Origin: a bacterium
GTDB lineage: Bacteria; SAR324; XYD2-FULL-50-16
Assembly: GCA_032250835.1 (NCBI GenBank)
Contig: JAVVEA010000018.1
Location: 12,428 to 76,427, forward strand
Reading direction: 5' to 3'
DNA length: 64,000 nt
Under the pieces are notes generated by a model. It saw only the letters and a list, made by a program, of their open reading frames with translations. It was not told where the DNA came from and did not search any database. Both the position numbers and the translations under genes were made by a program. How positions within the stretch are numbered: the stretch's first letter is position 1; each line of letters opens with the position of its first letter. This document shows, one piece after another, positions 36,641 through 64,000 of this stretch.

Positions 36641-38719
36641 TTGTACTTTGTGCCCAATCGCCTCCTTTTATCCACCTTGTTCATCTGGGGATATCTCCTG
36701 GGGGCCAGCGCCGCCAGCGCACAATCCACGCTGATCCTCACCGACCAAACTCGGTCGGTGGCCAGCAACCCCTTCTTGGAATTACTCGGCTCTACTGACG
36801 CCGAACTGAAACTAGTCCAAGCCCAACAGCTCGATCCCGTCCCCTGGCCGGACCCGTTAGACTTGGGCACGGTGTCTTTAGGTTACCGGAGCAGACCCGT
36901 TTGGTTGCATCTGAGGGTTAATAACCAGGGAACCCGACGCCATTGGCTGTTCGAGCAGGCCCATTGGACCACCTCCACCCTAGACCTTTACCAAGTGGGC
37001 CCCGGAGGTGAAGTGACCCACCAGCTTTCCGGCTCGTCGTTGCCCTATGACCAGCGGCCCTTTGACCACCGGCATCTGGTCTTCCCCTTGAGCTTTGAAG
37101 CCGGCACGACCTACGACCTCTATTTTAGGGCTCAGTCTTTATATCCCCTAGAATTCCAGACCTTTATCTGGAACCCTAAATCCTTTGTGAGTCATGTAGG
37201 CGTTACCGAAGGCCTGTTGATGCTGTTCTTCGGTATGTTGCTGGCTATGTTGGCCTTTAACCTATTGGTGCAGTTGGTGGTCCCTGACCGGGTTTACCTG
37301 CTATACGTGGCCTATGTAGCCAATATGGGGCTGTTTTTGGCGGTTTTGGACGGCGTTGCGTTACAATACCTCTGGCCCAAGTGGCCGGTTTGGAACCTCT
37401 GGGCCATGCCTTTTTTTGTGTCCACTGCTTCGACTGCCGCCATCCTCTTTGCCCAGCGGTTCTTGAGGACCCTTGAACGTGCCCCTAAGCTGCATTGGGC
37501 CTTATTCATCTTTCCGGTTTGGTCTTGGTCGATCTTTGCGGCTATGTTGCTCTTTGGGTATCAGTTTGAGTTTCTTTTCGGGCTCTTCGGGCTGGCCATC
37601 GCCCCCTTCTTATTGGGCACCAGCCTGTACCTGCTTTTTCAGGGGCACAAAGAAGCCCTGGTGTTTAGCATCGCCTGGCTCAGCCCCATGGTCGGTGTGG
37701 CTATCTTGGCCATGACGCTGTTGGGCTGGGTGCCCAATAACCGTTATACGCTTTATTTGATCAATGTGGGGCTTTTGGCCGATGTGGTTTTGCTGTCGGT
37801 GGCCATGTCCCACCGGATCAATTTGGCCCGGCGCGAGCAGGGGGCCGCGCAGGCGAAGTTATATGAACTGGAACTAAGACATAGCCAGCAACTTGAAAGT
37901 GAGGTCCAAAAACGCACCGAGCAGTTGCGGCAAAGCGAATCGGAGTTGTTGCGCACCAACCGCGCCAAAGACCGGCTCTTTTCGATCATCGGTCATGACC
38001 TACGCGGTCCGATGGGCGCACTCTACGGCACCTTGGCCCTGCTGGATAAAAACCATCTGGAGATGGAAACCGAAGACCGGGCCGACTTTTTGGCGACCAC
38101 CCACCGAGCCAGCCGGTTTTTGTTTGACCTGCTCTGCAACTTGCTGGATTGGGCCAAGACCCAGACCCAAGACATTGAGGTCAACGCCCAGGCCTTTGAC
38201 TGGGTCCATCAGGCCCAAGAAATCGCGTCGGTCTACCAACCGCTCGCCCAAGGCAAGCAGGTCGAATTGAAGCTGGACCTACCCCCATCCGCCTGGGTGG
38301 TGACCGACCCGGCCCTCAGCGCGACGATCTTGCGCAACTTGGTCCACAACGCCCTTAAATTCACCCCCAAGGGGGGTGAGGTGGTGGTCGGTGGCCGCTG
38401 GACCGAGGCCAAGGATTGGGAAGTAGAGGTCCGCGACCAAGGGGTGGGCATGGACGCGGCACGCCTGCGTTCGGTCTTGGGCGCGGCCCAATTGGAACCC
38501 GGCGAAGATACAGACGAAGAAACCAGCAGCGGGCTGGGTTTAGTGCTCTGCCGCCAACTGGGCCAACTGTTAGGCACCCAGTTGCAGGCCGAAAGCGAGC
38601 CCGGCCAGGGCAGTCGGTTCTGGTTTCAGCTTCCTGGCGCTGGTCACCCGCCAAGGAGCTTCGAGCGAAGCGAGGGCGACGGGCGTAGCGACGCGAGCCG
38701 GCGAGCGTTGCCAACATAA
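36641..38719 (+). CDS. 7TM-DISM sensor histidine kinase (7TMR-DISMED2, 7TM, HisKA, HATPase)
   Basis: LGYRSRPVWL, seven TM segments, IIGHDLRGP, NALKFT. Confidence 0.9.
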   Translation: MYFVPNRLLLSTLFIWGYLLGASAASAQSTLILTDQTRSVASNPFLELLGSTDAELKLVQAQQLDPVPWPDPLDLGTVSLGYRSRPVWLHLRVNNQGTRRHWLFEQAHWTTSTLDLYQVGPGGEVTHQLSGSSLPYDQRPFDHRHLVFPLSFEAGTTYDLYFRAQSLYPLEFQTFIWNPKSFVSHVGVTEGLLMLFFGMLLAMLAFNLLVQLVVPDRVYLLYVAYVANMGLFLAVLDGVALQYLWPKWPVWNLWAMPFFVSTASTAAILFAQRFLRTLERAPKLHWALFIFPVWSWSIFAAMLLFGYQFEFLFGLFGLAIAPFLLGTSLYLLFQGHKEALVFSIAWLSPMVGVAILAMTLLGWVPNNRYTLYLINVGLLADVVLLSVAMSHRINLARREQGAAQAKLYELELRHSQQLESEVQKRTEQLRQSESELLRTNRAKDRLFSIIGHDLRGPMGALYGTLALLDKNHLEMETEDRADFLATTHRASRFLFDLLCNLLDWAKTQTQDIEVNAQAFDWVHQAQEIASVYQPLAQGKQVELKLDLPPSAWVVTDPALSATILRNLVHNALKFTPKGGEVVVGGRWTEAKDWEVEVRDQGVGMDAARLRSVLGAAQLEPGEDTDEETSSGLGLVLCRQLGQLLGTQLQAESEPGQGSRFWFQLPGAGHPPRSFERSEGDGRSDASRRALPT

Positions 38720-38902
38720 AACCGTTGGCGCAGCCAACATCCCGTTAGACAACATGACCGCCGCAGGCCGAGGGCGACGGGCGTAGCGACGCGAGCCGGC
38801 GAGCGTTGCCCATATAAACCATCGGCGCAGCCGACTCCCCATAGGGACTTTAGACCAAAGTTAATCCAGCAAGGGCGGTGGGCGTAGCACGTGAGTATTG
38901 CC
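38671..38902. repeat. About 98-100-bp-period direct repeat (REP-like): two identical 42-bp cores plus a decayed third
   Basis: CGAGGGCGACGGGCGTAGCGACGCGAGCCGGCGAGCGTTGCC at 38671 and 38769; degenerate copy near 38872. Confidence 0.85.
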
Positions 38903-54738: not shown

Positions 54739-54923
54739 CAGGACGGCCTGGCTATCAGCGCCCCCTCAGCCCCCCAGCTGGGCCGTCCTGTTTAAAAACC
54801 ACCGCTTAACGGACGGTTCTGGCTATCAGCGCCCCCTCAGCCCCCCAGCCGGGGCCGTCCGTTATCCCTTGGGTAGGTCAAGCCTATCAGCGCCCCCTCA
54901 GCCCCCAAAGCTTGGCCTACCCA
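54739..54923 (+). ncRNA. Candidate sRNA: three hairpins with an identical C-rich loop
   Basis: CTATCAGCGCCCCCTCAGCCCCC at 54752, 54823 and 54884, each closed by a different 14-18-bp stem; G-U pairs only on the + strand. Confidence 0.7.
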
Positions 54924-56587: not shown

Positions 56588-57277
56588 ATGGGTCTTATCC
56601 GCCCCGCCCTTTTCGTGCTTTCAGCGCCGAGCGGTAGCGGGAAGACCTCGTTGATCAAAGAGGCCCTTGGCCGCCTAAAATTCCTCACCCTTTCGCTTTC
56701 GACGACCACCCGCCCGCCCAGGGCCGGGGAAACCGAAGGGGTGGACTACCACTTTACCGACCCAGACGATTTCAGCCGCAGCATAGACGCCGGGGAGTTC
56801 CTTGAATGGGCCTGCGTTTACGGCAACTACTACGGAACTTCGGCCAAGCGTATTGCTGAGGCCCAGGACCGTGGGCTTTCGGTTTTGCTGGACATTGACG
56901 TACAGGGCGCTATGCAGCTCAAAGAGTTGCCCGGTTTTTTGGCTCATTATGTTTTTATCAAGCCGCCCAGCATCGAAGAATTAGAAAGGCGCTTGACCGG
57001 GCGCGGTAGCGAGTCACCCGAGACGTTGGCCAAACGGTTGGGCAACGCTGTACATGAATTAACCTTCCAAGACCAATACGATTCTGTTATCCTCAATGAT
57101 GACTTAATCACCGCCGAGGACAAGTTTTTAAAGCTTCTGATCGCCCGGTCTATCAACCTAGACCTCGCTCGAAAGGAATCTAAAGAAACGCTGCTCTCTG
57201 CGCTTTGCCGCCAATCAGGGGACCTGCGGATAGCGACCTTGGTTGACCAAATATTGGAGTCCCCCGCCCCGACATGA
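56588..57277 (+). CDS. gmk: Guanylate kinase
   Basis: SAPSGSGKTS, TTRPPRAGETEGVDYHF, YYGTS, LDIDVQGA. Confidence 0.96.
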   Translation: MGLIRPALFVLSAPSGSGKTSLIKEALGRLKFLTLSLSTTTRPPRAGETEGVDYHFTDPDDFSRSIDAGEFLEWACVYGNYYGTSAKRIAEAQDRGLSVLLDIDVQGAMQLKELPGFLAHYVFIKPPSIEELERRLTGRGSESPETLAKRLGNAVHELTFQDQYDSVILNDDLITAEDKFLKLLIARSINLDLARKESKETLLSALCRQSGDLRIATLVDQILESPAPT

Positions 57278-59424
57278 TCCGGATCGAACAAATCATATCC
57301 GAGTTCAAGTCTTATAACCCCAATGCGGACGTCTCTCCGCTCCAAAAGGCCTACATCCTCGCCGCGCGCCTCTTGGCGTCTCCTTCTGGCCTGGTGGCCC
57401 AGCCGATTGCCGAACATTTGGAAGTCGCCCACATCTTGGTGGGGCTGAAACTGGATATTGAATCCATTGTTTCAGGGTTGCTCTACTCGACGATCAAAGA
57501 ACACCGTACCAGTGCCGCCGAACTTTCGGGGCATATTGGCGAAGCGACTGCGAAGATAGTAGAGGCTTTAGATGCCCTCCCCGGCTGGACCGGAGAGCGC
57601 ACCGGAAAAGACGAGATGGCCGAGGCAATGCGCGAGTTGGTCTTGGCGGCAAGTCAGGACCCAAGGGTGATCTTCATCAAACTAGCCGTTCGGTTGGTGC
57701 GGCTGCGGCATTGGAGTTCGATCTTGCGGCAAAAGTCTAAGGGCTTTGGCTCCGAGACTTTGGAAATCTTTGCTCCCTTAGCCGAGCGCTTGGGCCTGAA
57801 CCACCTTAAGGTGGAGCTAGAGGACCGCGCCTTTGCGTTGATCCACCCGAAAGAATTCCAAGCAATCCAGAAGTTTTTAGAAAGCCAACGTGAAGCCCAT
57901 TTGGCCTTTTTGCAGGCTCTTCAAGAGGAGTTACTGCGGCTGTTGGCCTTAGATCATATTGAGGCGGTGATCCACAACCGGATCAAACACAGCTTTTCGA
58001 TATACCAGAAGGCGCGGAAATATGATGTCCATTATCAGGACATCCACGACCTTCTGGGTTTGCGTATCCTGACTAAATCGAAAGACGAGGCCTATAAGGT
58101 ATTGGGCTTGGTGCATGGCCGGTTTAACCCGGTCCACGGTCGGTTTAAGGACTACATCGCTTTCCCGAAGGCCAACGGCTACCAAAGCCTGCACACTATG
58201 GTGCTTAACGACCAAGGGACCGGGTTTGAGGTGCAAATCCGTACCGAAGAGATGCACCATGTTGCCGAGTTGGGCGTGGCCGCTCATTGGTCTTATAAAG
58301 CCGCCCTGCCTAAGGCCGAAAAGTCGAATTCCAGTTTGGCTTGGTTGAACGAACTCTCCCAAAGCCTGGGAATCGCCGCAGACCCTAAGGAGTCTTTAGA
58401 GATATTCACCCGAGAACTCTATTCGGACCTAGTTTACGCCTATTCACCGAAGGGAAAGATCATCAAACTGCCTGCGGGATCAACGGTGCTTGATTTTGCC
58501 TATGCGATCCACACAGACCTGGGCAACCGCTGCATTGGAGCGAAAATCGACGGGCGGATTCTGCCGGTGCAGCACCGCTTGCACCATGGCGACCAAGTGA
58601 GCATTTTGACTAGCGAAGAGGCCCATCCGACCCAGTCCTGGCTTGCTTACGCACGCACCACCCGCGCCTTGAGCCAAATCCGCCAGGGGCTGCGCAAGCG
58701 CGAGAACAAAGAGGCGCTTAAGCTGGGGCGAGAAATCTTTGTGGAGCAAATCCAGCGCTTTGAAATTCCCTTGGACGAGTTTTCTGAGTCCGCCGAGTTC
58801 CAGGGATTTTTACTGAAGCACGGATACGAGGATGCGGCCGCCTATTGGACCCAGATGGGTTTTGGGAATGCTAGCATGAACGAGTTGAAGGCCTATTTGC
58901 TCTCAATCAACGAGCATATCCCACAGCGCCAGTCGCGCAAGTTGGTTTTGCCCTTCCAGCGCAAAGTGGACGTAGTGGAGATACCGGGCTTAGAGGACAT
59001 CCAGGTCCGCATTGCTAAATGCTGCGCCCCGATCCATGGCGATGCGATCTCTGGTTTGATGATTCAAGGCGAGGGCGTCTCGGTCCACCAAACGGACTGT
59101 AAATACCTCACCGGCATTGACCCCAAACGGCTGGTGGAGGCTCAGTGGGTTTTACGGCCCGAGGACCGTAAGACGGTTAAGGTGGTTTTGCATTTTGACG
59201 CAGACATCAAGACCCATGTGCAGATCATGCGCATCTTCGCCTCGGCCAAGGTGGTCTTGCAGGAGTGCCACCACCGCTTGGTGGAAAACCGCAGCACCCA
59301 AGAGGTCATCTGCCAAGTCGCCAGCCTCGACCAACTAGCCAAAATCCTCAAACGCCTCAACAACCTAAACCCCGTCACCGCAAGGCGCGTCTTCGACTCG
59401 CCCGAAGAAGAGGCGGTGGGGTAG
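57274..59424 (+). CDS. relA: Long RelA/SpoT homolog ((p)ppGpp synthetase, TGS, ZFD, ACT) with degenerate HD domain
   Basis: RFKDYIAFPKANGYQSLHT, EVQIRT, GVAAHWSYK, DFAYAIHT, AKCCAP; HD position reads LLYSTIKE. Confidence 0.92.
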   Translation: MIRIEQIISEFKSYNPNADVSPLQKAYILAARLLASPSGLVAQPIAEHLEVAHILVGLKLDIESIVSGLLYSTIKEHRTSAAELSGHIGEATAKIVEALDALPGWTGERTGKDEMAEAMRELVLAASQDPRVIFIKLAVRLVRLRHWSSILRQKSKGFGSETLEIFAPLAERLGLNHLKVELEDRAFALIHPKEFQAIQKFLESQREAHLAFLQALQEELLRLLALDHIEAVIHNRIKHSFSIYQKARKYDVHYQDIHDLLGLRILTKSKDEAYKVLGLVHGRFNPVHGRFKDYIAFPKANGYQSLHTMVLNDQGTGFEVQIRTEEMHHVAELGVAAHWSYKAALPKAEKSNSSLAWLNELSQSLGIAADPKESLEIFTRELYSDLVYAYSPKGKIIKLPAGSTVLDFAYAIHTDLGNRCIGAKIDGRILPVQHRLHHGDQVSILTSEEAHPTQSWLAYARTTRALSQIRQGLRKRENKEALKLGREIFVEQIQRFEIPLDEFSESAEFQGFLLKHGYEDAAAYWTQMGFGNASMNELKAYLLSINEHIPQRQSRKLVLPFQRKVDVVEIPGLEDIQVRIAKCCAPIHGDAISGLMIQGEGVSVHQTDCKYLTGIDPKRLVEAQWVLRPEDRKTVKVVLHFDADIKTHVQIMRIFASAKVVLQECHHRLVENRSTQEVICQVASLDQLAKILKRLNNLNPVTARRVFDSPEEEAVG

Positions 59425-59426
59425 TT
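59235..59426 (+). repeat. relA 3'-end repeat, copy 1 (native, coding)
   Basis: Matches 60545-60707 and 62628-62817. Confidence 0.95.
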
Positions 59427-59627
59427 GGTAATAAGGTTGAAGGCTTTTTAGCTGGGTTTGGGCTTTGTATCCCTTTTGTCAATATCTGGTATATCTGTGA
59501 CAAGGCATACTTTCCGCGTGTCGGTCAAACCAGTAAAATGGCATATAGCTGTTGAATAGGAATGCCTAACAATGTTACTTTTAGACTCTAGAGACGCATA
59601 GCGTGTTTATAACGGAGGCTTAGTATT

Positions 59628-59900
59628 ATGAGCGTAAAACTAGCGGTACGATTGGGGGCTGCCGGTCTTACCCAAGGGGTTGCCAATGACCGTTTGGGCG
59701 GCATTTCTGTGACGACCGCCATGTTCGTTGGCGCTGCCCAACTCCTTGGGCAGGTGCCCAAGGTTCGAGGGCTCAATCCAATAACCCCGGTGCAGGTTAT
59801 GTCGGATGCAGAGGCTATGCAAAACGATTGGAGCGCCGTTGGAACGGATATCGGCGAAGCCATGCACCAATTTAGCATAGAAGATGACAGATCAGCCTAA
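59628..59900 (+). CDS. Small hypothetical protein partnered with DUF2335
   Basis: SD GGAGG; C-terminal SDAEAMQNDWSAVGTDIGEAM, a motif I associate with genes upstream of DUF2335. Confidence 0.65.
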   Translation: MSVKLAVRLGAAGLTQGVANDRLGGISVTTAMFVGAAQLLGQVPKVRGLNPITPVQVMSDAEAMQNDWSAVGTDIGEAMHQFSIEDDRSA

Positions 59901-60453
59901 TCTCCCACTGGAAGAACCTGACGAGTCTTCTGATTCGTTGCCAACGATTCCGGAGCAGACGGTCCAAGAAATTGCGCGACAAGTCACTCAATCGAGCGGT
60001 GGTAAACTGACTGAGGAAGAGGCGTCGAACATCGCTCGTAAGGCCCTTCAGATGCGGGTCACGCGTAGGGTGTCGCAATCTGGTCCGTTGCCCCGTCCTG
60101 AGGTGATGGGTGGGTACGAGAAGATTTTACCTGGTGCTGCAGAGCGAATCATGGCAATGGCGGAGCGGCAAGCTGCGCACAGGCAGGAATTAGAGCGTGA
60201 GCAGGTCGTAAATCAGGTCAAATTGTTGAGTACGCGGGAGGAAAAACTTTGGGGGAACGCACGATTGGGGATTTGGTTGGCTTTTATTATCTGTTTGGTG
60301 GTGGTTAGTGTGGGAGCTTGGCTTGTTGCCTCAGGCAACGTGATAGGTGGTGGTGTGGCTTTGGGCTTGTCCTCTTTGGCTGCAGCCTTTATCTACGGTT
60401 CTCAAGGTAAACGCACCCCCGATGCGCCTCGCGAGACTTCTTCAGAAACGTAG
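59884..60453 (+). CDS. DUF2335 domain membrane protein
   Basis: SGPLPRPEVMGGYEKILPGAAERIMAMAERQAAHR plus two C-terminal TM segments. Confidence 0.88.
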   Translation: MTDQPNLPLEEPDESSDSLPTIPEQTVQEIARQVTQSSGGKLTEEEASNIARKALQMRVTRRVSQSGPLPRPEVMGGYEKILPGAAERIMAMAERQAAHRQELEREQVVNQVKLLSTREEKLWGNARLGIWLAFIICLVVVSVGAWLVASGNVIGGGVALGLSSLAAAFIYGSQGKRTPDAPRETSSET

Positions 60454-60544
60454 GGTACGACGCCCAGAGGCACCGTGTCATATCCCTATATAACACCTAC
60501 AAACCCGCTTAATCTCCATTCCCCGCTTATCCCTCACTCGATCA

Positions 60545-60707
60545 AGTGCTCCCACCGCTTGGTGGAAAACCGCAGCACCCAAGAGGTCATCTGCCAAGTC
60601 GCCAGCCTCGACCAACTAGCCAAAATCCTCAAAGGCCTCAACAACCTAAACCCCGTCACCGCAAGGCGCGTCTTCGACGCGCCCGAAGAAGAGGCGGTGG
60701 GGTAGTT
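60545..60707 (+). pseudogene. relA 3'-end copy 2 (163 bp, 4 mismatches to 59264-59426)
   Basis: Manual alignment; encodes HRLVENRSTQEV...EEEAVG*. Confidence 0.93.
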
Positions 60708-60803
60708 TTCCGCTCCCTGGTTTTTTGTACAGGTCCCTGCCTCCGCTGCATCAAGTATGATAATCCCTCACCAAACCCATATTTTTTTCTTGGAGGGGGA
60801 TCA

Positions 60804-61625
60804 TTGCACAAGTTTAACCAATACCTGGAATCTGTTTACGAACAATTTGACCATGAAGTTTTTTTGGAGTGCGAGCAGGCAAAGCAAAATTGGCAGAGTT
60901 GTGCGGACTGCCACCGGAATTCATATTTTCCAGGGGGAACGCCTCAGTACCAATGCAGTGAATTCCGTGAGATGTACCTGATGAGGTCATTGGGAGTGCA
61001 TCTAGACGAGATTTGCTCTGTTTTTACCGGACTGCAAGCAAAGGCTCCTTTTTCGGAAAGAGGGAACACAAGCTTTAAAGTCCTTTCAATCGGTGGTGGG
61101 CCTGGATCAGATGTCACTGGGTTACAGCGGTTCATCAAAGTCAATGAGTCCTTCTTTGGGCGCAAAAGTGCTAAATTTAAAGTCACACGGGTGGAAATGG
61201 AACCAACCTGGGATGACCAGTACGCCGAAGTTGTAAATTTGATCGAGAGCCCAGGATTTCAGTTTAAATTTGAAAACCACCATCTTAGTTTCGAAGGCTT
61301 TAGGCCCGAAAGCGAAGGTTATTATGATGTGATTACTCTATCATACGTGTTATCTGAACTCGATTCTTCGCAAATCGCTAATTTGACCAAATTGATAAAT
61401 GATTCTTTGGCCCCAGGCGGGTTACTCGTGATAAATGAGCGACCAGAGGAAAAGTGGGTCACGCAGGTACACAGCATGTTGGAAGCGGTAAACTTGAATC
61501 CTGCGTTTGAAACAGACAAACGGAAAAAAACGGGCCTCTTTATTCCAAACCTCATGACTATAAAGCCAAGTCCAAAAAGGTATTTAAACTCCTACCGCCT
61601 TGGAGCCATTAAGGGGGGCGGGTGA
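60804..61625 (+). CDS. Class I SAM-dependent methyltransferase-like protein with N-terminal Cys cluster
   Basis: SD GGAGGGGG then TTG at 60804; VLSIGGGPGSD, YDVITLSYVLSE, LAPGGLLVINE; CADCH..C. Confidence 0.72.
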   Translation: MHKFNQYLESVYEQFDHEVFLECEQAKQNWQSCADCHRNSYFPGGTPQYQCSEFREMYLMRSLGVHLDEICSVFTGLQAKAPFSERGNTSFKVLSIGGGPGSDVTGLQRFIKVNESFFGRKSAKFKVTRVEMEPTWDDQYAEVVNLIESPGFQFKFENHHLSFEGFRPESEGYYDVITLSYVLSELDSSQIANLTKLINDSLAPGGLLVINERPEEKWVTQVHSMLEAVNLNPAFETDKRKKTGLFIPNLMTIKPSPKRYLNSYRLGAIKGGG

Positions 61626-62569
61626 TCATCAGCGCCAGTAGGCGAACGGACATTCCGGCTTTTTATTCCGAGTGGTTTGTTAACAGGCTGCGCGCTGGGT
61701 ATCTATTGACCCGGAATCCCTTTAACGCCCATCAGGTTAGCAAGGTATCGCTGCTTCCCGAAGACGTGACGGCCATCGTGTTTTGGACCAGAAACCCGAC
61801 TCCTTTAATGAAACACCTGAAGGAGATCGACCGGAGTGGATACCGCTACTATTTTCAATACACCATCACGGGCTACCCTAAGATTCTGGAAACTTCGGTG
61901 CCTAGGCCCCACAGAGCCCTTGAAACCTTTAGCAAGTTAAGCGATTTGGTGGGGGCTAACCGGGTGATTTGGCGCTACGATCCGGTCTTGTTGTCCGCCA
62001 AAATGGATATGGACGAACACAAGCGATTGTTTGTGAAAATTGCCGATTCCTTGGCCAGCAAGACCCGCCGAGTGGTGGTCAGTTTTGCGGACCTGTACAC
62101 CAAGGTGAACCGCAACTTGGCCAAAGTAGACCAATTGCAGCCCTGGGATATTGTTGAACACCGCGATAAACTTTCAGAGCTAGCGTTCTTTTTCTCTAAA
62201 ACAGCAGGAGAGCGCGGTCTTGAAATCCAATCCTGTGCGGAAGATGTAGACCTCTCGAAAGAAGGGATCGAGCATGGGAAGTGTATTGATGACCAGCTGA
62301 TAGGGTCGGTCTTAAAGGTGGAGTCAGACCACGCAAAAGATAAAGGCCAAAGGGAGGCTTGCGGCTGTGTTAAGAGCGTCGACATCGGGATGTACAACAC
62401 CTGTTTGCACGGCTGCGCCTATTGCTACGCCACAGCCAACAAGTCTTTGGCCCTAAAAAATCACGAAAAACATGACCCCAACAGCCCCTTTTTGATCGGG
62501 CAGCCAAAAGACACGGATCAAGTGAAGACCGTTGAAGGGAAGGGCCCTATCCAAGAAACCCTTTTCTAA
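61622..62569 (+). CDS. DUF1848 family protein (radical-SAM-like Fe-S motif)
   Basis: MIISASRRTDIPAFY, VFWTRNP, WRYDP, CGCVKSVDIG, CLHGCAYCYA. Confidence 0.92.
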   Translation: MIISASRRTDIPAFYSEWFVNRLRAGYLLTRNPFNAHQVSKVSLLPEDVTAIVFWTRNPTPLMKHLKEIDRSGYRYYFQYTITGYPKILETSVPRPHRALETFSKLSDLVGANRVIWRYDPVLLSAKMDMDEHKRLFVKIADSLASKTRRVVVSFADLYTKVNRNLAKVDQLQPWDIVEHRDKLSELAFFFSKTAGERGLEIQSCAEDVDLSKEGIEHGKCIDDQLIGSVLKVESDHAKDKGQREACGCVKSVDIGMYNTCLHGCAYCYATANKSLALKNHEKHDPNSPFLIGQPKDTDQVKTVEGKGPIQETLF

Positions 62570-62627
62570 AGGGCTCAAAACCTTATTTACCCGCTCAGTC
62601 TTTATCTATCGAGCAGAACCCGCACAG

Positions 62628-62817
62628 CTTCGCTTCGGCCAAGATGGTTTTGCAGGAGTGCCACCACCGCTTGGTGGAAAATCGCAGCCGCCAAGAGGTC
62701 ATCTGCCAAGTCGCCAGCCTCGATCAATTGGCCAAAATCCTCAAAGGCCTCAACAGCCTAAACCCTGTCAGCGCAAGGCGCGTCTTCGATTCGCCGGTGT
62801 AAGAGGCGGTGGATTAG
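62628..62817 (+). pseudogene. relA 3'-end copy 3 (190 bp, about 20 mismatches to 59235-59424, premature TAA)
   Basis: Manual ungapped alignment. Confidence 0.9.
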
Positions 62818-62982
62818 GCAAGGTTTTCCCCTGCCCGTGGTTTGGTGGGCCGGTCGTTAATCATCCTTTAAAAAATATCCCCAATATCCCCCGAGCCTTA
62901 CTGTTTCGGTAAGTGGCGTGATTTAATTCTGGTCCGATTCTGGATAAGCAACAAAAATTGCTAACCTGACCTAGGACCCAAC

Positions 62983-63927
62983 GTGAAACAAGCCAGCCAA
63001 GATTTTCTAGCCCATTGCCGCCTAGAAAAGAACCTTTCCGCCCATACCCTCAAGGCCTACCAGGGCGACCTAAACAGCTTCATCCGGTTTTTGGGGCCCA
63101 AAGTTAGTCCCGAGCAGGTGGGCAAAGAGCAGTTGCGTTTGTTTTTAGGGGAGCTTAAAGACGGCCAGCAACTAAAAGCCACCAGCATCAAACGCCGCTA
63201 CGCCTGCCTGAAGGTGTTTTTTGCCTGGCTTGAAGAGGAAGAACGTATCTCGCTGACCCCTTTTCACCGCTTCCGGCTCCAGCTACGCCTGCCCCACCGA
63301 CTCCCGCGCCACCTGCACCGAACAGAGTTGAGGCAATTGTTTACCCTGGCCGCTAAAGCCGCCGGTTTGGATTGGCGGCAAGGTTACCCCGATGTCCTGA
63401 GTTACCGGGCCCAAGGGGCCGGGACCTTTGGGGCCCTGTCCCTGCTGGTGGGGATCGAGCTGATGTACTCGACGGGCATCCGGGTCGGGGAATTGGTCGA
63501 GATCGGGCTGGAAGAATTGGACCTAGAGGCCAAAGAAATCCTGATCCACGGCAAGGGGCAGCGCGAGCGCCGGGTTTATTTGATGGATAGCGAGTTGTTA
63601 CAGCTTTTGGGTCTGTACCTAGCCCAGCGCAGCCGCCTCAACCCCGACCACCCCAAGCTACTCTGCGATGCTGCGGGCCAACCTTTGGACACCGCCTGGG
63701 TCCGCCAACGCATCAAGGCCCTGAACCTAGACCGCCACGTAACCCCCCACATGCTCCGCCACAGTTGTGCTACGGGCCTCATCGAATGTGGCACCGACAT
63801 CCGCTTTGTTCAGCGCCTCCTAGGCCACCAATCCATCTCCACCACCCAACTCTACACCCACATCCAAGACCAAGCCCTCCGCCAAGCCCTAACCCTAGCC
63901 CAGCCCAGGAGGCAGATGATGGGATAA
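62983..63927 (+). CDS. Tyrosine recombinase/integrase (XerC/D-like fold)
   Basis: N-terminal LSAHTLKAY, TGIRVGEL, HGKG, TPHMLRH, LLGH, TQLYTH; all catalytic residues present. Confidence 0.93.
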   Translation: MKQASQDFLAHCRLEKNLSAHTLKAYQGDLNSFIRFLGPKVSPEQVGKEQLRLFLGELKDGQQLKATSIKRRYACLKVFFAWLEEEERISLTPFHRFRLQLRLPHRLPRHLHRTELRQLFTLAAKAAGLDWRQGYPDVLSYRAQGAGTFGALSLLVGIELMYSTGIRVGELVEIGLEELDLEAKEILIHGKGQRERRVYLMDSELLQLLGLYLAQRSRLNPDHPKLLCDAAGQPLDTAWVRQRIKALNLDRHVTPHMLRHSCATGLIECGTDIRFVQRLLGHQSISTTQLYTHIQDQALRQALTLAQPRRQMMG

Positions 63928-64000
63928 CTAGGAATTATTATGCCCTACTCTTTTAACTGGCACATGGAGCAAGCGCACAATCGTCCATTAGATGGGAATC

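Follow-up and report, generated by a model that had tools for sequence, protein, structure and literature searches.

Homology-facilitated illegitimate recombination in natural transformation is known from laboratory crosses with Acinetobacter and pneumococcus, and the R64 shufflon is an example of an inversion switch. The locus described here can be compared with both, as well as with integrons and with the tandem islands that occupy the 3' end of a gene. It consists of an array in which the 3' end of relA recurs between small gene cargos, followed by a gene for a Xer-like tyrosine recombinase, in a bacterium of the SAR324 lineage (NCBI GenBank assembly GCA_032250835.1, contig JAVVEA010000018.1, here called C9). 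The window, i.e. the whole stretch of 64,000 nucleotides (nt) that was analysed, corresponds to G000:C9:12428-76427, and the contig ends at the window's last base. Tandem islands at a gene 3' end are represented, as far as the available text of the two reports goes, by the ssrA islands of Dehalococcoides (PMC3146451) and by the accretion of streptococcal integrative and conjugative elements (ICE) and cis-mobilizable elements (CIME) (PMC5704250); further inversion switches are Xer1/vpma of Mycoplasma agalactiae (PMC2268961) and the hsdS 'epigenetic invertons' (PMC7672463).

The reading we favour, with moderate confidence, combines two independent processes. The region between relA and a UbiD-family gene would be an insertion hotspot in which blocks of foreign DNA have been stacked, newest first, by recombination that is homology-anchored on one side and illegitimate on the other, while the recombinase would belong to a separate inversion switch and have taken no part in the stacking. 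The array is best understood as a natural footprint left where genes were acquired repeatedly at a single hotspot through one-sided, homology-anchored events; the same genome has four more such footprints.

The preliminary description of this DNA had reported three direct copies of the relA 3' end, and its counts proved exact. With respect to the working end of the intact relA gene (Table 1), copy 2 has 4 mismatches in 163 nt, and copy 3 (62628-62817 compared with 59235-59424) has 20 in 190 together with a premature stop codon, so that divergence grows with the distance from relA, as had been stated. The homology of copy 3 can be traced further back, to 59218/62611, which brings its count to 26 mismatches in 207 nt; these changes fall 6/10/10 on the three codon positions and amount to 8 synonymous and 13 non-synonymous codon changes. 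The variant reported to be common to copies 2 and 3 is a G at the position where the working copy has a C (59353). Tails 1 and 2 have an exact stretch of 82 nt in common, longer than the k-mer of the assembly (3.66 Mb, 43 contigs, k = 77, many branch points), and no stretch invariant in the three tails is longer than 33 nt. When the entire assembly was searched, the two extra tails were recovered with E values of 4.9e-74 and 1.6e-69 and nothing else matched; a fourth relA tail was found there neither by short-word blastn nor by tblastn with the last 89 residues, and none lies between the recombinase block and ubiD.

Orthologues of relA are present in all 18 genomes of the family (18/18). The tail DNA itself had no match in any of 60 related genomes (0/60), a degenerate pattern of the invariant tail stretch matched 0 metagenome contigs, and a RelA protein scan of metagenome contigs gave no match above 37% identity. 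In a collection of 5.8 billion proteins, the best RelA match has 67% identity and bears the source label Candidatus Lambdaproteobacteria, the nearest named one. The relA C-terminus was inspected in five relatives: it is single-copy in four and was not assembled in the fifth, G003. In this last genome (G003:C38:7-1554) and in another (G013:C45/C249), contig ends cut relA near residues 515-524, and no tail repeats were seen at these contig breaks.

The intervals between the tails hold two co-oriented two-gene cargos devoid of recombinase, whose content is, according to Pfam, the one described earlier (Table 1). All four cargo genes are single-copy in the genome and co-oriented with relA, and the contents of the three blocks that make up the array have no mutual similarity. 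Cargo A has no NCBIfam or PADLOC match. In cargo B, a TTG start is proposed for the methyltransferase gene, whose stop codon overlaps the start of the DUF1848 gene, and the GC content is 0.44 at 61001-61500 versus 0.547 genome-wide. The DUF1848 protein also matches the PADLOC model RTasDUF1848 (2.2e-54); this model is filed under defence-associated reverse transcriptases, and no reverse transcriptase lies near window 61622-62569. With regard to the proposed read-through expression from relA, no promoter-like or convincing terminator-like site stands out in the region.

Directly to the left of each displaced tail lies a remnant of the 3' end of a second gene. The intact version of this gene, ubiD, is carried by contig C38 (C38:476-2287, minus strand) and encodes a UbiD-family protein of 603 amino acids (aa) with UbiD_N, UbiD and UbiD_C domains. 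Immediately left of copy 2, 38 nt are 87% identical to C38:478-515; the reverse-strand translation of this remnant reads RVRDKRGMEIKRVCR versus RVMDKWGMEIERVCR* in ubiD, the similarity runs about 20 nt beyond the stop codon, and the Smith-Waterman local score of 51 compares with a maximum of 27 in 200 shuffles. The remnant before copy 3, taken alone, is not significant (21 versus a shuffle maximum of 25). A 13-mer, ACCCGCTYARTCT, occurs four times in the genome, three of these occurrences being at the two joints or in ubiD itself.

At both joints the remnant passes into the relA tail without any spacer, in the order ubiD' then relA tail. This order reverses that of a simple relA-ubiD interval, and the joints are therefore new ones. 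Furthermore, the relA position is 59264 at one joint and 59218 at the other, and the ubiD remnants are of unequal extent, which argues against one fixed attachment (att) site. From the ubiD remnants and the absence of a fourth tail it follows that the unit of the array is [relA tail - cargo - ubiD remnant]: the tail of the first block is the working relA tail, and the last block, formed by the recombinase gene and a putatively invertible segment, ends at the intact ubiD.

The link between C9 and C38 is provided by the end of the window. The last 77 nt of C9, which is exactly the k-mer size of the assembly, hold a recombination site and the start of an open reading frame (ORF) that we call ORF X. 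The reverse complement of C38 contains these 77 nt as well, preceded by a different left flank that leads, after about 130 nt, to the ubiD stop codon. A stretch common to the two contigs with differing flanks suggests that C9 and C38 are neighbours across a segment starting with ORF X, and such an adjacency would explain the presence of ubiD remnants within the relA array. Contig C8, considered as the continuation of the island, was dropped in favour of C38: its first 14 kb have an ordinary GC content, and only its genes from 14.4 kb on match the relA neighbourhood of another genome, G007.

Table 1. Features of the relA array, the adjacent switch and the further tail-repeat loci (window positions unless a contig is named).
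Feature	Coordinates	Strand	Details
relA/spoT-type (p)ppGpp synthetase-hydrolase gene, intact	57274..59424	+	716 aa; Pfam HD_4, RelA_SpoT, TGS
relA tail copy 1, working relA 3' end	59218..59426	+	reference copy of repeat family D1
Cargo A	59628..60453	+	90-aa ORF, 59628-59900 (no family); DUF2335 membrane protein, 59884-60453 (Pfam)
ubiD 3' remnant abutting tail copy 2	60480..60543	-	last ~17 codons and ~20 nt of 3' flank
relA tail copy 2, displaced fragment	60545..60707	+	4/163 mismatches vs 59264-59426
Cargo B	60804..62569	+	S-adenosylmethionine (SAM) methyltransferase, 60804-61625; DUF1848 protein, 61622-62569; Pfam Methyltransf_23, DUF1848
Weaker ubiD 3' remnant abutting tail copy 3	62574..62606	-	local alignment and 13-mer
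relA tail copy 3, oldest, decayed	62611..62817	+	premature TAA at 62800-62802
Xer-like tyrosine recombinase gene, intact	62983..63927	+	314 aa; Pfam Phage_int_SAM_1, Phage_integrase
Recombination site GATAACTAGGAATTAT	63923..63938	+	overlaps recombinase stop TAA, 63925-63927
ORF X start, cut by the contig end	63940..64000	+	109 codons readable on C38
Further tail-repeat loci	C5:77035-82059, C5:40201-46227, C43:52142-53699, C22:309302-311221		self-comparison

The relA array is not isolated in this genome. A self-comparison revealed four more loci at which 125-241 nt of a gene 3' end recur after an integrase-less cargo, the repeat ending in each case at most 28 nt from the stop codon. The genes concerned are an RNase_T-domain gene, where the cargo comprises carbamoyltransferase, SxtJ-family and GDSL genes, the gene for the large subunit of a NiFe-hydrogenase, and two small genes of unknown family. 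The copies at these four loci differ by 12/4/28 at the first, second and third codon positions (p = 4e-5). Differences lying mainly at third positions imply that both copies evolved as working gene ends in separate lineages before they were joined, which favours imported replacement tails over a duplication in place. The whole genome contains only six tyrosine-recombinase matches, none of them on the contigs of the four loci, and the process generating the tail repeats seems to be general in this genome.

In the model we favour, each block of the relA array would result from the arrival of DNA from a relative carrying a different cargo between relA and ubiD. The incoming end would pair by homology within relA and supply a new working tail. 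The other end would include no more than some tens of bases of ubiD, an insufficient length for homologous exchange, and this short ubiD end would be joined illegitimately inside the resident relA 3' end. The route could be homology-facilitated illegitimate recombination or a single cross-over of a circularised fragment, both of which would give the same product. Each event would shift the earlier tail and its cargo outwards, so that the newest block adjoins relA and the displaced tails decay. The earlier proposal of a serial, newest-first accretion with replacement tails is retained in this part, given the serial foreign blocks each provided with a relA tail, their outward decay and the 12/4/28 distribution at the four other loci; the integron-like mechanism that had been attached to it is not supported. 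The presence of ComEC and DprA turned out to be uninformative: both are present here, and also in 10 or more of 14 control genomes.

An intact tyrosine recombinase after copy 3 had also been announced, and the gene does encode both expected domains, with R167, K191, H256, R259, H282 and Y291 falling in invariant columns of an alignment of 24 sequences, i.e. a complete catalytic set. With a start 166 nt behind tail 3, it occupies the far and oldest end of the array and has the same orientation. The best-scoring NCBIfam models are XerC and XerD, the scores remaining below both equivalog cut-offs (217 vs 335 and 192 vs 330). The integron integrase models give 110 bits against a cut-off of 265 (TIGR02249) and 63 bits against 435 (PRK15417), and an identification as an integron integrase was ruled out by these scores; a reading as a 'recombinase in trio' was ruled out by the Pfam assignments of the neighbour genes. 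A search for close orthologues found none: the best match in the 18 family genomes has 47% identity along 111 residues, and a further 87 genomes from the class gave a single match, at 33%. A large protein collection contains 1628 relatives at E <= 1e-20, the best at 61% and most of the top 120 at 41-48%, and the family is distributed over many phyla. A tblastn search of plasmids with a family member from Azospirillum gave no match.

The surroundings of these relatives were examined at the best 80 (L010-L089) of at least 567 confirmed recombinase loci, obtained by a profile search with one genome per species. By comparing the DNA after each recombinase stop codon, we found a conserved imperfect palindrome of about 17 bp with the consensus GATAACTaggAATTAT; the search rule required ATAA and ATT, and the invariance of those letters is therefore partly built in. 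The site overlaps the stop codon of the recombinase gene, or sits at most 14 nt from it, in the window as in 58 of the 80 loci. Only two good copies exist in the present genome, that of Table 1 and an inverted one at C38:329-344, and the cassette borders have no copy. A third site-like sequence, on contig C12, corresponds to an ordinary junction of stop codon, Shine-Dalgarno sequence and start codon. Neither relA nor any cargo homologue is found nearby in the relatives' loci (0/80). The suggestion that the adjacent recombinase drives the array is not supported by these data: its own site is at its stop codon and not at the cassette borders, and its relatives do not reside near relA.

What the recombinase may do instead is indicated by the sequences lying downstream of it in the relatives. 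Among 41 informative loci, in which the site is present and followed by at least 1000 nt, an inverted partner, with no more than 1 mismatch over 14 nt, lies 0.19-5.9 kb downstream in 28 and a direct one in none (0/41), while shuffled downstream sequences gave 1 match in 820 trials. The variable central bases of the site are identical within each pair (TAAG, TAAT, TGAG, TCGG, TCAA, TTAA, etc.), that is, they covary. In 20 of the 28 pairs, two convergent ORFs whose starts lie within the repeat or immediately behind it have 3' ends no more than 43 nt from each other, the extremes being an overlap of 43 nt and a gap of 29 nt. One of them usually encodes a small-molecule enzyme (methyltransferase, GT2/GT4, ATP-grasp, UbiA, CDP-alcohol transferase, serine hydroxymethyltransferase, class-III aminotransferase, phosphoenolpyruvate mutase or PAP2), the other usually a large AAA_16/TPR, NB-ARC, SIR2 or Mrr-type, pentapeptide-repeat or no-family protein. 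The site carries AGGA, and the ATG of the next gene lies within it in 26 of 52 loci. Furthermore, the contig ends within 300 nt after the recombinase gene in 22 of the 80 loci and within 300 nt before it in none (0/80); at least 11 contigs stop right after ...AATTAT, including those of isolates of Pseudoalteromonas, Burkholderia, Ralstonia and Planctobacterium. Such breaks at the site can be explained by the behaviour of an assembler when two arrangements co-exist. Direct repeats around the modules made of recombinase and segment were seen in none of the 26 loci (of 28) whose downstream sequence was long enough for the test.

From these sequence features, we read the family as the invertases of a two-gene switch in which the site supplies the stop codon of the recombinase. 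A flip of the segment would change which of the two genes follows the recombinase gene, and we infer that the inversion takes place and that it affects expression. In the window, the segment starts with ORF X, which has no Pfam match and is possibly a pyridoxal phosphate-dependent enzyme of the aminotransferase fold; this assignment comes from an Atlas feature match of 0.95 to Aminotran_1_2 clusters and serves as a lead only. Some loci deserve separate mention. The recombinase 3' ends of L051, L059 and L076, from metagenome-assembled genomes of Dechloromonas and Accumulibacter, are near-identical; L051 and L059 also have their outer right flank in common, with segments that differ in content and length (3698 vs 1575 nt), which suggests a possible exchange of segment contents between related genomes. 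In L046, L048 and L085, the inverted site pair lies upstream of the recombinase gene and not at its stop codon, a variant arrangement.

Several observations weigh against the two-part reading we favour. As regards the array, the adjacency of C9 and C38 is deduced from the site pair and the remnants, no sequence spanning the interval, and ubiD does not lie close to relA in any of the four relatives from which the relA locus was retrieved. A single-cargo relA-X-ubiD allele or an empty site was not seen, and no close relative was found. All four differences of tail 2 alter the amino acid; for relA tail 3 alone, the third-position bias (5/5/10) is not significant (p = 0.29); and no remnant of a downstream gene was detected at the joints of the four other loci. 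A recombinase could, moreover, act on the tails in trans. As regards the switch, the remainder of the segment is absent from the assembly, and the junction of the ORF X start with both flanks fits equally well with both orientations being present in the sample or with an inverted repeat of 77 to 343 nt. Finally, no case of opposite orientations of one segment in two related genomes was encountered among the 80 loci.

The alternative that survives best, doubtful as we consider it, is that the blocks are tandem integrase-less integrative elements, CIME-like or satellite islets, whose attP would be the ubiD remnant plus relA tail and which a recombinase encoded elsewhere and acting in trans would have inserted site-specifically into the relA 3' end and accreted. 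Islands of this kind classically leave direct repeats of a gene 3' end by which the gene is restored, both cargos have the same kind of right end (ubiD remnant plus tail), as would sister elements with one attP, the cargo is co-oriented with relA, and tail repeats occur at five loci in the genome. A site-specific model, however, predicts an att site at every border and one cross-over position; here the far border, where no fourth tail is found, is without att and the two joints differ in relA position and in the extent of the remnant. In addition, the repeats are long (125-241 nt), and five target genes would have to be served in a genome whose six tyrosine-recombinase matches include none beside four of the five loci. 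The 33-nt invariant run is no longer than expected by chance: by our own estimate, about half of the random placements of 20 mismatches in 190 nt give such a run.

A bolder reading seems unlikely. The tail-bearing blocks would then be integrase-less cassettes addressed by homology, whose circles would be closed at the ubiD-remnant|relA-tail joint and whose replacement 3' end would be the integration handle; inserted and stacked by the homologous recombination of the host, they would represent a RecA-driven counterpart of integron accretion operating at five or more genes in this lineage, beside an apparently undescribed and widespread family of gene-swap inversion switches.

Less probable still is an in-place tandem duplication of the relA-ubiD interval by unequal RecA exchange, followed by divergence and replacement of the content. 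A duplication running from inside relA to inside ubiD would indeed be expected to create a ubiD'|relA tail joint. Three contents without similarity and two joints differing in position speak against it, as do the third-position differences at the four analogous loci, which are unexpected for a silent duplicate decaying in place.

We give very little credence to an integron-like system, with tail-bearing cassettes being captured at relA by the neighbouring recombinase: an intact recombinase 166 nt behind tail 3 and a divergence growing with distance from relA would suit it, but NCBIfam does not recognise an integron integrase (TIGR02249, 110 vs 265), the site at the stop codon forms inverted pairs in relatives (28/41) and is missing from the borders, the joints differ (59264 vs 59218), no tail closes the far end, none of the 80 relatives' loci is beside relA or the cargo genes, and direct repeats around the modules are lacking in 26 loci. 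Equally hard to credit is an assembly artefact, in which a metagenome-assembled contig would have joined end to end the variants that different strains have at one hotspot, for although a 43-contig assembly at k = 77 has many branch points and the exact 82-nt stretch of tails 1 and 2 exceeds k, variant alleles would give a relA-ubiD bubble and not ubiD'|relA tail joints, and neither tail 3 nor either ubiD remnant is an allele of a working gene, all three being decayed fragments.

Two other features of the window were recorded. The region of about 38670-38840 (C9:51097-51266) contains the end 77-mer of contig C7, beside a 73-nt tandem repeat (90% identity), and this 77-mer is a branch point of the assembly graph. 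At 54748-54914, a 35-nt C-rich repeat is present three times with spacings of 71 and 61 nt, each copy being enclosed by an inverted pair of the GGACGGCC...GGCCGTCC type; it looks like a repetitive extragenic palindromic (REP)-like intergenic element or a minimal repeat array.

In conclusion, the locus resembles several described systems without coinciding with any of them. Like tandem islands, as these are presented in the available text of the reports mentioned above, it shows cargo blocks in a row with direct 3'-end copies between them, an intact target gene and some blocks without integrase; unlike them, it has long repeats (163-207 nt), joints at unequal positions, a remnant of the gene of the opposite side at each joint and no att copy closing the array, and the cognate site of the one recombinase beside it is a different one. 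With integrons it has in common the serial arrangement of small, promoterless-looking cassettes beside a tyrosine recombinase, the newest nearest the entry point. The borders, however, are copies of relA coding sequence joined to a ubiD remnant and not attC, and the recombinase does not reach the score of an integron integrase; its gene lies at the old end of the array and has the same orientation.

The closest parallel to the array is homology-facilitated illegitimate recombination, which likewise yields one homologous anchor and one illegitimate joint beside a conserved gene, and in which the anchor piece may be duplicated. Footprints of this kind are well known from laboratory transformation; what differs here is a natural stack three blocks deep, with footprints at five loci of one genome, for which we infer the route. 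No description of natural stacked arrays of such footprints was found in the literature. The array would show how accessory and defence-type genes can pile up without a dedicated mobile-element enzyme, and it carries a warning, namely that repeats may lie beside a recombinase that did not generate them.

Of the two results, the inversion-switch family is the more novel one and most deserves to be followed. Its members resemble XerC/XerD in their best-scoring NCBIfam models and in their two-domain build, and the ATAA...TTAT core of the site presumably recalls the inner arms of dif; they differ in that the recombinase of the window scores below the equivalog cut-offs and is not conserved as a housekeeping gene across the 18 family genomes, and in that their sites form local, inverted pairs. 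In the literature, neither the site sequence nor the switch architecture was found, and a listing in supplementary files is possible. As in the inversion switches described in the accessible parts of the vpma and hsdS reports, an Xer-like tyrosine recombinase lies beside inverted repeats, and a flip would select the coding sequence placed behind a fixed upstream unit. In contrast to these switches, the site overlaps the recombinase's own stop codon, and whole unrelated genes, typically an enzyme gene and a convergent gene for a large NTPase-type protein, would be swapped instead of alleles. A survey of gene-altering inversions required, according to the available part of its text, repeats of at least 22 bp and at least one repeat wholly inside a coding sequence (PMC9881135), a filter that would miss most of these site-pair loci. 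If the inversion is true, the family would constitute a broadly distributed two-state switch that has escaped repeat-based surveys.

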